From: Burkholderiales bacterium
Lineage (GTDB): Bacteria; Patescibacteriota; Minisyncoccia; Phycocordibacterales; UBA9973
Reading direction: 5' to 3'
DNA length: 64,000 nt
Assembly: GCA_023701005.1 (NCBI GenBank)
Contig: JAMPXW010000001.1
Coordinates: forward strand, 143,843-207,842
The position numbers were made by a program, and so were the translations under genes. This document shows, one piece after another, positions 4,621 to 20,682 of the stretch. The notes under the pieces were generated by a model. It had not been told where the DNA came from. It did no database searches and saw nothing but the letters and a program-made list of their open reading frames with translations. The first letter of the stretch is position 1; each line of letters begins with the position of its first letter.

Positions 4621-5802
4621 TTATTGAAGAGGTGGACAAATTGTTTTCGAGGCTGTGTTCCCAGCGTATCCAGTTTCATTTATACACCAATATCCATCTG
4701 AAATGGGGGCTATTATAGAATAAGTATCTTTTGAGTCTTTACAATTTAGAGTTGTTAATTTTGTTATACTTTTTATCGCGTTAAGGTATTCATTTGATTT
4801 ACAAAACCCATAATAAGAATTTGATTTCTCATAATAAATCTCTGCGGATGCTCTTGTGCTAGAGAGAGGCTCTTTTATTGTTGCATCCTTTAGATAATCT
4901 TGGGTTTTGTTTGATTTAGCTAATAGAGTTTTAATCGCTGATGGTATGCTGTTTTTATTGATTATAAATGATTTAATTATTTTTTCTATTTGATCTATCC
5001 TATTTTTATCATTTGTTTTTGAAATGACATTAAATATAATACTTAATTTTGTATTATTATAAGTACCTAAGTCTATTACGTAAATAAAAGTGTAAATATT
5101 TGGAAGTTCTTTTTGCAGGTAGATATATTTATATGATGGATGTGTATTAATATCTTCAAAAGAATTTTTTGGAGAGTATTTTTCTATAGAATATTTGTTT
5201 AGCATGATGTCATTAACATCAGTAATGATAGAAATTATAGGATAATCGTCCCATTGACGGATGGTTAAAAGAGCTAAATCATATAAAGAGTTTGTTTGTT
5301 GTTTATCGATTTCTGCCCCTGCTGGATAACTGAAAGAATAAAGTCCATTTATATCGTTATAGACACTTAAAGATGGATCTGTCACTTTGATTTCTTGAGT
5401 ATTTGGAATTATATTATTTTGTTGCTCGGCAGGGGTGGTTGTTTGTATGTTGTTATCTTGGGTTGGTGTTTCCGACAACACTGTTGTATCCCTATTTACA
5501 AATAAATTTTTAATAATAGATGAATCTAATAAGTCGTCTTTTAAATAATAAACAGAAACGCCAGCTATTAATAAAAATAGTATTAATACAATCCAAAATA
5601 TTTTTTTACCAAAATGATTATCAATTTTTGTGATTGATGGTTGTGGTTGAAAAGTTTGTTGCTGAGTTTTAGTAACATCAAATCCTTCTTCTATGTCTTG
5701 GTGGGTCCATCCATTAGCTAATAAATCGCTAGTTATTTTTTCTTTAATTATGCCTACTTGTAATTGTTGTTTAATAAAATTTACTAATTGCTGATTAATC
5801 AT
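4621..5802 (-). CDS. Hypothetical membrane-anchored protein (one N-proximal TM helix, large extracytoplasmic domain, C-terminal Cys-containing region)
   Basis: 393-aa ORF. TM IFWIVLILFLLIAGVSVYY. No recognisable catalytic motif. Confidence 0.4.
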   Translation of the reverse strand: MINQQLVNFIKQQLQVGIIKEKITSDLLANGWTHQDIEEGFDVTKTQQQTFQPQPSITKIDNHFGKKIFWIVLILFLLIAGVSVYYLKDDLLDSSIIKNLFVNRDTTVLSETPTQDNNIQTTTPAEQQNNIIPNTQEIKVTDPSLSVYNDINGLYSFSYPAGAEIDKQQTNSLYDLALLTIRQWDDYPIISIITDVNDIMLNKYSIEKYSPKNSFEDINTHPSYKYIYLQKELPNIYTFIYVIDLGTYNNTKLSIIFNVISKTNDKNRIDQIEKIIKSFIINKNSIPSAIKTLLAKSNKTQDYLKDATIKEPLSSTRASAEIYYEKSNSYYGFCKSNEYLNAIKSITKLTTLNCKDSKDTYSIIAPISDGYWCINETGYAGNTASKTICPPLQ

Positions 5803-17675: not shown

Positions 17676-17978
17676 GTCTTTTTTAAAAATTATTTATTTA
17701 GAATGAAATCAAAAGATTTCAATAATTTTTTTGTTTCAATTGTCGAGTCTATCGGCAATTTAGGGAATGTGTTTTGGAGATAATTTTTCATCTCCTTAAA
17801 AGAAATATTTTCTCTCTTTTTCTTCCCAAAAAATTTTATAAAAATTTTTTTTATCATATGAAACGACCTCCTTGTCGTTTTTATTTTGATGTACTAATTT
17901 TTTATTTATTCTATCTAAATGATAACACCTACAATGCATGTTTGTCAACAATTATGAAATTTAATTTGTGACCCCGGT

Positions 17979-18050
17979 AGGAATCGAACCTACATCATAA
18001 CTTCCGCAAAGTTACGTCCTATCCATTGAACGACGGGGCCTTTTGTTTGT
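17979..18050 (-). tRNA. tRNA-Arg (anticodon GCG)
   Basis: Cloverleaf readable by eye: acceptor GGCCCCG/CGGGGTC; D-loop AATGGATA with A20; anticodon loop TTGCGGA; T-arm GTAGG-TTCGATT-CCTAC; discriminator A. Confidence 0.7.
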
Positions 18051-18099
18051 CTAGATGTTAGACAATTGAAGGTTAACAGTTTTTAAGAAAAAATTCAAA

Positions 18100-18567
18100 T
18101 TAGAAATCTAAAAATTCCATTATCTTTTCAGATACGTGTTCTTTTATTTCTTCTTCTTTTACTTCATTGAAAGTCATAAAGTTGTGAACTTCTTCTACTA
18201 GGGTAGGATCTATCGGCATGGAGATTATAGGCATAAACAACCTTTCTGATTTTATGAATAAGGTAGGTTTGTCTGTATCTCTTTTAATCCAAAAAGCTTT
18301 TATATTTTTGTAAGGGAACAGTCTATTTCTTATTTTTAATCCTTTTTCATTAACTTCATAAAAAACCAAGTCTGGTTTTTTGATAGCAAATAAAGTAAGT
18401 AAAAAACCTCCGATTATTAAAAATAATCCAAAGAAATAATTTTTGTAAATGAAAGAAGTTATTGAACTTGCAACGACGATAACACCAAGAGCCCAGAACC
18501 AATCATTGCCTCGTTCTTTTTCTTCATATTCAAGCGCGGTCCATTCTAGTTTTCTATTTGGATCCAT
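18100..18567 (-). CDS. Small membrane protein with two N-terminal TM helices and a bacterial PH-like (bPH_2/DUF304-type) C-terminal domain
   Basis: WFWALGVIVVASSITSFIY / FFGLFLIIGGFLLTLFAI, then YEVNEKGLKIRNRLFPYKNIKAFW..TLFIKSE. Confidence 0.45.
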   Translation of the reverse strand: MDPNRKLEWTALEYEEKERGNDWFWALGVIVVASSITSFIYKNYFFGLFLIIGGFLLTLFAIKKPDLVFYEVNEKGLKIRNRLFPYKNIKAFWIKRDTDKPTLFIKSERLFMPIISMPIDPTLVEEVHNFMTFNEVKEEEIKEHVSEKIMEFLDF

Positions 18568-19120
18568 TAGTATAATTATACTAACCTTTAATATTTAATG
18601 CAAAAATATTGGAATTTTGTATTATTAATTTTTGTAGTGTTTGCCTTGGTAAACAAAGAATGCTAGATTGTTTTTATCGTTCTTTGACTTATGGGTACAA
18701 GAAATTGGATATGGAGAATCTGCCTGATATTATCTGTTTATGTTGATATTTAAACAGTATGTCTACTCAATTAAATTGAGTTTAGGGAACAGAGATTCTG
18801 ACTGTATACATAACAAGCACTATTTCTGCTTATGGAGCCATTGATAAATAGTGTGTATACTTACGATTAACTAATTTCTCGGGGCCAACAAATTAAACAG
18901 ATTAGTTGCCAATATTACAAAAAGAACTCTCGTTTATTTTAAACCATAGAGTTTGAAAAAAAACGGCAACAGAGAGCTCCTTTAAAAGGAGCTCTTACTA
19001 TTTATATATTTTGAGTTTTAAATATTTGCGGGTCACTCGGGTTCAGCACCAGGATGGTGAGACACTGTAAGGGTCGTTTGGGATAATTTTAGAGACTAAG
19101 CAGAGGGATGTGCGTCTATG

Positions 19121-19927
19121 CTAATTTATTGGTACTAAATTAAAAACTTCTTTTATGGTATCGAGCTTAAATAAGATACCTAGCCCAATCCACTTAATAG
19201 GTATTTTCTGTTTTTCTTTTTCCTCTGCAACAGTCTCAACTTCTGTAAAATCTAAATAAGAAAATGTTGATTCTGCAATTATTCCAAGAAGTTTATACTT
19301 ACCATTATGGCTTACAAAAACAGGACTTCCGCTTGACCCTGGAAACACTTGAGCATCAATCAATAGCTGTCTTTTTCCATTAAAGTTTATGTCTGGAATA
19401 CTAGAAATATTACCATTTCTAAAAATTGGTAGAAAATTTTTGCGATCGTAGAATCCTGTAGGATAACCTACGAAAACTATATTCTGACCACAATACAAAT
19501 CTTCATTTTTATAATCTGAGAATTCATCTAACTTTAAACTTCTCATATTTAGTGGAATTTCTGGAAAATTATAAGCCGCTGATATATCAAGACATCCAAC
19601 ATCAACTTCTTTGTCTGGATGGTCAAAATACAATTTACCATCCCTTTCTATCTCTATTTGAAACTTGTGAGTTTCTCCTAGTTTAAATGTTCCATCTTTT
19701 TCTGCCTTATGTACAGTTATTAATATTTTCTTTTTTATTCCCTCTAAATTTTTATCTTTCTTTCCAAAAAAAACATGCTTGTTTGAAAAAAGTAGCTGTT
19801 TAATTCTATTATTACCTATGTCCTTTGTTATTAAAAACCCTGTACCAAATTCTTTATCATCAATATTTTCTATCAATACTGTGTTAAAAAATACTTGCTC
19901 TTCAAATTTGTTAAATTGGACTGACAT
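19121..19927 (-). CDS. Cytoplasmic trypsin-like (chymotrypsin-fold, S1-type) serine protease
   Basis: His/Asp/Ser triad candidates (FSNKHVF; VDVGCLD; GSSGSPVF). No signal peptide or TM helix. Confidence 0.6.
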   Translation of the reverse strand: MSVQFNKFEEQVFFNTVLIENIDDKEFGTGFLITKDIGNNRIKQLLFSNKHVFFGKKDKNLEGIKKKILITVHKAEKDGTFKLGETHKFQIEIERDGKLYFDHPDKEVDVGCLDISAAYNFPEIPLNMRSLKLDEFSDYKNEDLYCGQNIVFVGYPTGFYDRKNFLPIFRNGNISSIPDINFNGKRQLLIDAQVFPGSSGSPVFVSHNGKYKLLGIIAESTFSYLDFTEVETVAEEKEKQKIPIKWIGLGILFKLDTIKEVFNLVPIN

Positions 19928-19996
19928 ACAACAAATTATAGCTTAAATATAATAAATTAAGTAGTGAGTCTACTCCGGTACTTTATTTTTAAGGGC

Positions 19997-20080
19997 GGAG
20001 GTGGTGAGATTCGAACTCACGGTCCCTTTCAGGACTTCGGTTTTCAAGACCGATGCACTAAGCCTCTATGCGACACCTCC
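19997..20080 (-). tRNA. tRNA-Ser (anticodon TGA), long variable arm
   Basis: Acceptor GGAGGTG/CACCTCC; anticodon loop CTTGAAA; extra arm AGTCCTGAAAGGGACC; T-arm GTGAGTTCGAATCTCAC; discriminator G. Confidence 0.8.
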
Positions 20081-20113
20081 CAGTAGTTGGTTCAATTCAA
20101 TATACCTTTTATC

Positions 20114-20599
20114 TTAAAAATTTTCAATCTTTTTTGTTAACCAACTTTTTTCTAAAAGATGTTCTTCCGCATGACAATTTGGACAAATTAACTCTAGATT
20201 TTCAATTTCATTATTTTTTCGATTTCGATTTTTGTGATGTACTTCTAAAATTTGGTATTTGTCATAATTACATTTTTCACATTTTTTGCCTTTTTCTTTT
20301 AATAGTTTTATTTTTAAAGCTCTTTGAGATTTTACTTTATCATTGGGGCTGTTTATTTTATATTGTATACCTTTTCTATGGATGTTGGCACAACTTCTAC
20401 TACAAGTTTTTTTGTTTAATCCAGCTAATATTAATTTTTTGCACACAACACAAGGAGTTTCTTTTCTGTTAGATAAACCATAACAATTCATACTACAAAA
20501 AACTCTTCCACTATTTTTTTGAATTTCAATAGGTCTTCTATAAATAGGGTAGGAGCAAATGATGCAATTTGTATTTGGATTTCTTTTATACTCATCCAC
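20114..20599 (-). CDS. HNH endonuclease with three N-terminal CxxC zinc-ribbon repeats
   Basis: C-terminal HNH: CEKCNYDKYQILEVHHKNRNRKNN..NLELICPNCHAEEH. N-terminal repeats C..C...(F)CS..C. Confidence 0.7.
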   Translation of the reverse strand: MDEYKRNPNTNCIICSYPIYRRPIEIQKNSGRVFCSMNCYGLSNRKETPCVVCKKLILAGLNKKTCSRSCANIHRKGIQYKINSPNDKVKSQRALKIKLLKEKGKKCEKCNYDKYQILEVHHKNRNRKNNEIENLELICPNCHAEEHLLEKSWLTKKIENF

Positions 20600-20682
20600 T
20601 AATCCAGTATACCATAAATAAAATATATATCACAAAATTAAAATGCTCAGTTTTAGTGAGCATTTTAATTTTGAAAGTTAAG

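Follow-up and report, generated by a model that had tools for sequence, protein, structure and literature searches.

An accessory PDC-S45-family serine protease gene beside tRNA-Ser in a Nomurabacteria genome, a candidate phage-exclusion cassette

The segment running from tRNA-Arg(gcg) past tRNA-Ser(tga) to an HNH endonuclease gene was analyzed at positions 17979-20599 of a 64,000-bp stretch of DNA (contig JAMPXW010000001.1 of assembly GCA_023701005.1, positions 143,843 to 207,842; hereafter the window). The best explanation was a composite, in which core genes are joined by a single small accessory insert, a serine protease gene that may be a cassette and may have a role in phage exclusion; this explanation was given a probability of about 0.55. 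The accessory part of the window measured about 1.4 kb (roughly 18611-19993) and consisted of the protease gene and about 550 bp of non-coding DNA. An earlier note, made from the letters alone, had described the segment as bracketed by tRNA genes and as carrying the protease, a membrane protein, the HNH nuclease and a stretch without open reading frames (ORFs); all of these features were recovered by ARAGORN, Rfam and the ORF list.

Genome contigs were scanned with the nearby PilM-like protein, and 80 related Nomurabacteria/Paceibacteria loci with 45-79% identity were recovered, onto each of which the window proteins and tRNAs were mapped. Most of these loci were labelled Candidatus Nomurabacteria, Paceibacterota or plain Patescibacteria, and about one quarter were labelled 'Saccharibacteria'. 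Since the PilM-based scan returned loci of these groups, the window comes from a candidate phyla radiation (CPR; Nomurabacteria) genome despite its NCBI name 'Burkholderiales bacterium'. The order kept in the relatives was tRNA-Arg(gcg), a gene for a 155-amino-acid (aa) membrane protein, a variable slot, tRNA-Ser(tga), the HNH gene in some of them, DUF5652, RuvX, a tRNA-binding protein, PilM, and PilN. Both tRNA genes lie on the minus strand and were called by ARAGORN and Rfam. The core backbone gene tRNA-Arg(gcg) (17968-18040) adjoined the 155-aa gene in nearly all relatives, and the 3' flank of tRNA-Ser(tga) (19994-20080) was the variable slot of the lineage. Thus tRNA-Arg(gcg), the membrane protein with two transmembrane (TM) helices and a PH-like domain, and tRNA-Ser(tga) were all shown to be part of the conserved Nomurabacteria backbone. 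The segment is therefore not a unit bounded by the two tRNAs, as had been supposed; variation was confined to the portion from the membrane-protein gene to tRNA-Ser.

The protease gene (19121-19927, minus strand) was missing from this locus in all 80 relatives, and its placement in the slot was seen only in the window genome. Although close relatives of the genome are present in the same database, the best non-self match of the protease was only 57% identical, while the adjacent 155-aa core gene reached 81% and PilM 79%. The absence from 80 loci and the value of 57% against 81% for the adjacent core gene showed that the protease is an accessory gene in this lineage. The suspicion that it is accessory cargo next to a tRNA was thereby supported, and the gene lies directly 3' of the tRNA in a hypervariable slot. 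Of the conserved gene order that the note had named as a possible counter-argument, the backbone was present in the relatives, but the protease was found in 0 of the 80.

The gene encoded a cytoplasmic serine protease of 268 aa with the chymotrypsin fold, a member of the PDC-S45 / PHROG 7688 family, as judged by Pfam, PADLOC, PHROG and AlphaFold2 (AF2). It matched Pfam Trypsin_2 (clan PA) with an E-value of 2.6e-12 and 48.2 bits against a cut-off of 27.6. The catalytic triad H51, D109, and S201 (within GSSGSP) stood in the canonical order and was invariant across 32 homologs. The AF2 model had a mean confidence (pLDDT) of 89, and its best PDB matches (Foldseek probability 1.0) were Deg5, SplA/B, DegQ, and chymotrypsin; the Pfam score, the model and the Foldseek matches all supported the double beta-barrel chymotrypsin fold. 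The only PDB sequence match was a weak one, to a V8-like glutamyl endopeptidase. On reading the sequence, the N-terminus showed no hydrophobic signal-like segment, and the prediction of a signal-less chymotrypsin-fold protease with a His/Asp/Ser triad was borne out by the invariant triad, the model and the N-terminus. The 'unusual N-terminal region' of the earlier note proved to be a family-conserved helix (residues 8-15, ahead of the first strand; F8 invariant, E9 near-invariant) and not an added domain. Besides this extra helix, the protease had a loop specific to its clade behind the catalytic His, and an insertion of 25 residues that was modelled with low confidence.

The PADLOC check placed the protease in the defence-candidate family PDC-S45 (single-gene, model PDLC05022), with an E-value of 4.4e-43 and 145 bits, residues 6-219 being aligned with profile positions 14-236 of 293. 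The match to phrog_7688 had an E-value of 1.9e-40, and the protease was about 38% identical to proteobacterial PDC-S45 members. The window was thus shown to carry an intact gene for a cytoplasmic serine protease that is a further member of an already known candidate family. There are 145 PDC families, all of them untested candidates that were recognised by their embedding in BREX, DISARM or restriction-modification (R-M) loci (bioRxiv 10.1101/2024.01.29.577857).

The protease family was patchily distributed over Paceibacteria, a metagenome-assembled genome (MAG) labelled as a DPANN archaeon, and Proteobacteria. The protease homologs were examined in 172 loci (1.22 Mb), where homologs of the window's neighbour genes never co-occurred with them; in the loci whose gene context was inspected, the neighbours differed in every case. 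At L111:2938-7974, a 34%-identical homolog was flanked by the hsdS and hsdR genes of a type I R-M system with 4-bp junctions, and at L108:2840-6018 another 34%-identical homolog was located between an EcoRI-like methyltransferase gene and a GmrSD/HNH type IV restriction gene. The junctions of these embedded homologs in L111 and L108 were overlapping or 4 bp long. The protease of the window was not inside a recognised defence system, and the sole nuclease gene nearby was the HNH gene beyond tRNA-Ser. Distant homologs were found in 86 viral contigs, 6 of the 12 closest lying within 300 bp of the contig end; one homolog was located at the end of Shigella phage SfII, and an Aeromonas homolog was located between the trp operon and ydjM.

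The earlier note had suggested as possible a compact module made up of the protease and the 155-aa protein; it would be a two-gene abortive-infection system in which the protease senses or activates and the 2-TM PH-like membrane protein acts as effector. In favour of the proposal, both genes lie on one strand with 553 bp between them, and pairs of a protease and a membrane effector exist in other defence systems. However, orthologs of the 155-aa protein (50-78% identity) were found beside tRNA-Arg in 36 relatives, all without the protease, so that at least 36 protease-free relatives carry the gene. In a large protein database it had 831 homologs, the top 120 listed being 61-81% identical, and among the 172 protease-homolog loci the number of its relatives was 0. 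In addition, the 155-aa gene has a conserved promoter of its own, and a terminator-like hairpin lies between the two genes. The 155-aa membrane protein is a core gene of Nomurabacteria/Paceibacteria, unrelated to the protease; because it is core without the protease and absent from protease loci, the module was refuted and is hardly credible.

The 155-aa gene (18100-18567, minus strand) was described from the ORF list, AF2, Foldseek and synteny as a DUF5673-like protein with two TM helices and a PH-like domain. Its AF2 model (pLDDT 80) had TM helices at residues 21-40 and 44-62, followed by six strands and a helix in a beta-sandwich plus helix arrangement. All top Foldseek matches belonged to the PH superfold (Spt16M, FERM-F3, GRK2-PH, and PTB), with weak E-values of 0.01-0.2, and DUF5673 (Pfam) was matched below threshold only, in 14 of 31 orthologs (best 7e-5). 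The earlier description as a 2-TM bacterial PH-like protein fits the model, with its two predicted TM helices; with weak Foldseek E-values and Pfam below threshold, the term 'PH-like' is supported but not proven. The promoter and 5' region of this gene (18568-18610, minus strand), recognised by comparison and by a promoter-like site (TTTGCA-18-TATAAT at 18604-18575), was 93% identical to that of L020 over 43 nt, and shorter matches were found in L048, L012, L017, and L024. In L012, L017, L025, L037, L062, and L081, ARAGORN placed tRNA-Arg(gcg) on the opposite strand beside the 155-aa gene, usually about 8-10 nt from its stop and further away in L025 and L062, which suggests a local inversion of this tRNA gene in some lineages.

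The slot, measured from the 155-aa gene to the 3' end of tRNA-Ser, ranged from 44 to 6126 bp across 41 relatives. In the synteny comparison that had been proposed, the protease was missing everywhere, and the interval was not uniformly empty. The 93 slot ORFs of the relatives were grouped into 87 clusters, with almost no genes in common. Their cargo was mostly for transport and metabolism (P-type ATPase, SulP, iPGM, G6PD/6PGD, PGI, aminotransferase, ArsP, MacAB, GH18, and methyltransferases), and a few genes were toxin- or defence-like, namely Fic (SoFic match at 1e-40), PLD (DrmC match), nucleotidyltransferase, and APH genes. Amid the otherwise metabolic genes, the Fic and PLD genes mean that single-gene defence-like cargo recurs in the slot. 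Since the relatives' slots hold mostly transport and metabolic genes, the slot is a general plasticity zone and not a dedicated defence island. The Fic/DOC protein with a helix-turn-helix domain at L022:7264-8664 matched PADLOC SoFic at 1.3e-40, and a related protein at L048:6892-7941 was recognised by Pfam only. The PLD-family protein at L058:7453-8526 matched DrmC at 8e-31, and the protein at L070:4080-5105 clustered with it.

Site-specific integration classically leaves behind a partial copy of the tRNA 3' end downstream of the tRNA. In 8 relatives, partial copies of the tRNA-Ser 3' end were found on the same strand 31-147 nt downstream of tRNA-Ser(tga), and they indicate repeated site-specific integration at tRNA-Ser(tga) in Nomurabacteria. 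Such 3'-end copies were located in L014, L020, L039, L042, L057, L065, and L072, with two copies in L072; the copy in L042 was 48 nt long and extended from the anticodon loop through the 3' end (E = 7e-5).

In Paceibacteria, protease genes also tended to start directly after a same-strand tRNA gene. The distance was 66 nt in the window (Ser-tga), 31 nt in L004 (Gln-ttg), 25 nt in L253 and 4 nt in L255 (both Ser-gga). The upstream sequence was known for seven independent Paceibacterial loci, of which 4 showed this adjacency, against a background of 4.7% of ORFs (P(>=4 of 7) = 1.5e-4). The region L253:4019-5061 consisted of an intact tRNA-Ser(gga), 25 nt, a protease homolog (52% identical), 107 nt, and a partial tRNA copy. 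This copy of the tRNA-Ser(gga) 3' end was 28 nt long (5034-5061), 24 of the 28 positions matched the L255 tRNA, and none of 300 shuffled sequences did as well. On this arrangement, L253 appears to contain a single-gene unit of about 1 kb bracketed in the manner of attL and attR. No partial tRNA repeats were found near the tRNA-linked homologs L004, L092, L096, and L001.

In the window, the spacer between the 3' end of tRNA-Ser and the protease ATG (19928-19993, minus strand, 66 nt by sequence reading) contained no significant copy of a tRNA 3' end. A TATAAT was located at 19940-19935, only 7 nt ahead of the ATG; on account of this short distance, the protease mRNA would be leaderless. A similar promoter-like sequence followed tRNA-Ser in L071, L053, and L065.

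A further element of about 70 nt after the protease gene was common to L253 and L006 (z 7.7). The 3' untranslated region of the window protease compared with L006 repeat 1 gave z 2.9, with 18 of 1000 shuffles as good, and the comparison with L253 was not significant. As a candidate in the window, the conserved 3' element was marginal only, and leave-one-out nhmmer did not recover the window. In L006, a direct repeat of about 105 nt (897-1010 and 1358-1470, also L007:1-35) flanked successive small ORFs. It followed the closest protease homolog (57% identical), upstream of which a further partial copy was located. The repeat shared homology with the element that follows the L253 protease, and it matched no Rfam family. 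This repeat could be a cassette boundary, a recombination site or a cis-regulatory leader. For an integron cassette at L006, no IntI was seen and an R'/R'' core was not evident by eye; an attC-model search was not made. A gene for a tyrosine recombinase (Phage_integrase, 316 aa) occupied L255:6049-7124, immediately behind tRNA-Leu(tag); the protease homolog that abuts tRNA-Ser(gga) lies 1.4 kb upstream of it. It was the only tyrosine recombinase seen, and it may be an XerC/D-like housekeeping enzyme or the recombinase of an element.

It was also considered whether the protease is a leftover moron of a degraded prophage or integrative element at tRNA-Ser, with the ORF-less 550 bp as the rest of that element. 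The PHROG 7688 match, the homolog at the end of SfII, the position of half of the 12 closest viral-contig homologs near contig ends, and the att-like tRNA-Ser copies in relatives all fit such an origin. On the other side, neither phage genes nor an integrase nor the recognisable remains of a gene were present in the window slot, and the bracketed unit of about 1 kb in L253 contained the protease alone. This origin is improbable as a separate explanation; moreover, it overlaps the preferred composite reading and does not exclude it.

The tRNA adjacency statistic and the L253 bracket suggested how the preferred insertion could have arisen. The protease gene may have arrived as a minimal integrase-less cassette that targets tRNA 3' ends and is mobilised in trans, and the far-end repeat of the cassette may later have decayed in this genome. 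In a more general form, PDC-S45 in Paceibacteria would travel as a single-gene cassette of about 1 kb without an integrase, inserting precisely at tRNA 3' ends (Ser-tga, Ser-gga, and Gln-ttg) with a replacement tRNA end and a short conserved 3' element, and being mobilised in trans; it would be a minimal defence cassette, with the window as one decayed example. This generalization is tentative and rather doubtful. Within the composite reading, the protease would be a single-gene phage-exclusion factor that is latent in the cytoplasm, and this is the weakest step. By analogy with the substrate-assisted Lit, an infection-specific protein might turn host or phage proteins into substrates, which the protease would then cleave. 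The HNH gene would be a separate gene of the homing-endonuclease type, fixed in position beyond tRNA-Ser.

The stretch between the protease and 155-aa genes (18568-19120) was 553 bp long and its longest ORF had 45 aa, in agreement with the earlier report of about 550 bp without an ORF longer than 60 aa. It comprised, after the promoter region of the 155-aa gene, an ORF-less spacer with a GC content of 0.31 (18611-18971, no strand assigned; ORF scan, Rfam, blastn/tblastx, and RNA folding), a GC-rich palindromic terminator-like hairpin (18972-18996, no strand assigned, listed on the plus strand by the tool; terminator/promoter call and folding), and the protease 3' untranslated region (18997-19120, minus strand, GC 0.41, fold z-score -2.7). 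A run of eight T at 18963-18956 on the minus strand followed the hairpin stem by 8 nt. The spacer contained 9-12 stops per 175 codons in each frame. No relatives of it were found by tblastx and blastn against 2.4 Mb of related and protease-bearing loci or by blastn against phages, and no conservation was seen in the ORF-less stretch beyond the 43-nt promoter region. To look for a pseudogene, the stretch was read in all six frames, searched with the 93 slot proteins (tblastn) and compared with all loci (tblastx); nothing was found. The spacer is probably non-functional filler or decayed cargo, and the term 'decayed islet' used in the note was a fair description. At 18598-18666 on the plus strand, divergent from the promoter of the 155-aa gene, a 22-codon ATG ORF encoded the hydrophobic peptide MQKYWNFVLLIFVVFALVNKEC; the ORF probably arose by chance in AT-rich DNA, though it is type I toxin-like in size and character.

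That the ORF-less stretch encodes a structured plus-strand non-coding RNA, antisense to its neighbours and regulating or partnering the protease, was judged very unlikely. Folding of 18600-19000 gave a z-score of -3.2 on the plus strand (0 of 100 shuffles as good) and -1.1 on the minus strand, the GC content of 0.31-0.41 was near the genome average and not lower, and the palindromic hairpin at 18972-18996 would also suit such an RNA. However, the z-score was modest and came partly from hairpins that fold on both strands, the stretch had no Rfam match at the gathering threshold or at E<=10, and it had no homologous sequence in the 2.4 Mb searched. The gap downstream of protease homologs had a median of 53 bp and exceeded 300 bp in 9 of 76 loci; with this median, a long non-coding tail was rejected as a feature of the protease family.

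Several points weighed against the preferred composite reading with a phage-exclusion role. With mostly transport and metabolic genes in the relatives' slots, location alone is no sign of defence. The protease gene was host-like in GC content (0.294 vs 0.325 +/- 0.031), GC at third codon positions (within about 1 standard deviation), and codon usage (divergence below the mean of the reference ORFs), and the compositional deviation looked for at the note's suggestion was not seen. PDC-S45 members are without experimental test in the literature, where the single paper that names the family gives a PADLOC match only, and no sensor domain or partner of the protease suggested how its activity is controlled. 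For the cassette, the tRNA adjacency statistic was based on 7 loci only, and the adjacency might alternatively serve expression by read-through from the tRNA promoter, without any integration. No integrase was present in the window slot, where the protease is the sole ORF, or among 30 scanned slot proteins of relatives. Nor did any copy of the tRNA-Ser 3' end in the window reach significance, the best local alignment being a chance-level 9-mer, and in an empirical scan the best att candidate (about 19035-19090) ranked roughly 90th of 6302 windows. An att duplication in the window was sought by local alignment, regular expressions, nhmmer with a profile of 55 tRNA-Ser 3' halves, and the window scan, with no significant result; the matches TCTCACCA and GAGTGACCCG noticed by eye failed these tests. 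The earlier statement that neither an integrase nor an obvious att duplication is present was thus sustained by the ORF list and the repeat searches, including the search for a direct repeat of the tRNA-Ser 3' end.

These points bear on the explanation that the protease is an ordinary gene of the flexible genome, with a physiological role in cytoplasmic protein turnover or processing and without phage defence, in a plastic region. It is favoured by the first seven kinds of cargo listed above for the slot elsewhere (from P-type ATPase to ArsP), by the host-like composition, by the status of PDC-S45 as a candidate without experiment, and by the Aeromonas homolog between the trp operon and ydjM. 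However, a type I R-M operon and the methyltransferase/GmrSD pair harbour relatives of the protease, the family is also a PHROG with members in viral contigs and a patchy distribution, and SoFic-like and PLD/DrmC-like genes enter the slot as well. The explanation was considered somewhat unlikely, and the composite reading with a phage-exclusion cassette was preferred.

Beyond tRNA-Ser, a gene for a 161-aa HNH endonuclease with its own conserved TGGTATACT promoter (20114-20599, minus strand) was characterized by Pfam, PHROG and alignment. It matched HNH_3 with 27.7 bits (cut-off 24.8), HNH with 22.7 bits (cut-off 21.4), and phrog_1271 at 1.6e-14. The H-N-H and CxxC...CxxC residues could be read in the 161-aa sequence, and three Cys4 clusters were found (C12/C15/C35/C39, C50/C53/C66/C70, and C107/C110/C139/C142), the first two being N-terminal zinc ribbons. 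With Pfam scores above the gathering thresholds, the HNH nuclease of the note was confirmed. The gene occurred at the same site in 9 relatives (59-71% identity) and was absent from the closest relatives; paralog-level copies (28-29%) were located elsewhere in L021 and L051, giving 11 relatives in all. This patchy distribution agreed with the idea of accessory cargo. The HNH gene is an independent, patchily retained or homing-type gene, and because its divergence (59-71%) tracks that of core genes, it may equally well have descended vertically and been lost repeatedly. At 20633-20673, between the DUF5652 and HNH genes, a perfect inverted repeat of 17 bp (CAAAATTAAAATGCTCA / TGAGCATTTTAATTTTG) is probably a terminator; it gave a spurious sub-threshold Rfam match to mir-3660.

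The whole contig (P0001, P0121) had a GC content of 32%, carried DUF5652 and PilMNO, and showed 60-81% identity to Nomurabacteria/Paceibacterota MAGs. From its GC content, gene content and these identities, the NCBI label 'Burkholderiales bacterium' is probably wrong for the source MAG, and a Patescibacteria genome is indicated. Exact-sequence look-ups of three window proteins returned no identical copies on other contigs, so no strain-level polymorphism was visible.

CPR/Patescibacteria have tiny genomes with few recognised anti-phage systems or mobile elements. If the cassette reading is true, the locus represents a defence cassette in organisms thought to be poor in both; if the protease is not defensive, the locus simply holds an ordinary flexible-genome gene. 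The locus presents a sharply bounded defence candidate of one gene, in a hypervariable slot that has been mapped, and offers a concrete target for testing the PADLOC family. It adds evidence for tRNA-Ser 3' ends as integration hotspots in Nomurabacteria, and the repeated occurrence of the protease gene right behind tRNAs is a hint of a mobilisable unit of very small size.

Compared with known systems, the secreted or periplasmic proteases SplA/B of Staphylococcus aureus, V8 GluV8, and HtrA/Deg were the best structural matches of the window protease (Foldseek E about 1e-8). The window protease differed from them in having no signal peptide or PDZ domain, in its identity of 17-20%, and in its extra N-terminal helix, loop and insertion. 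It shares its protease superfamily with the Lamassu LmuA-protease (1.3e-8), the UG/Abi reverse transcriptase-protease of class XI (RT-Protease_XI, 2.7e-8), and the trypsin-metallo-beta-lactamase (MBL) modules of Hachiman, Avs and pAgo. In those systems an LmuB/SMC ATPase, a reverse transcriptase, a helicase or an MBL nuclease is involved, whereas here none of these is fused or adjacent; the protease is a single 268-aa domain flanked by the tRNAs, the PH-like protein and the HNH gene, without an LmuB, reverse transcriptase or MBL partner, and the similarity concerns the catalytic domain only. Proteolysis as an immune output is a concept shared with trypsin-like effectors (bioRxiv 10.1101/2025.09.03.673762).

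The HNH gene resembled free-standing HNH homing endonucleases (phrog_1271-type) in its HNH motif and zinc ribbons and in its presence or absence at one fixed intergenic site, but it was not in an intron or intein and its divergence tracked core genes. Like tRNA-associated genomic islands, the protease gene was located directly 3' of tRNA-Ser, was absent in relatives, and occupied a hypervariable slot, with partial tRNA 3' copies in 8 relatives and bracketing the protease in L253. It differed from such islands in its size of about 1-1.4 kb, its single gene, the lack of an integrase and of a significant repeat in the window, and the lack of a compositional signature. In comparison with PDC-S45 / PHROG 7688, the differences were the CPR host, the identity of about 38% to proteobacterial members, the position directly 3' of a tRNA, and the location outside a recognised defence system; the likeness lay in the hidden Markov model matches, the stand-alone single gene, and relatives embedded in R-M loci as in the PDC definition.

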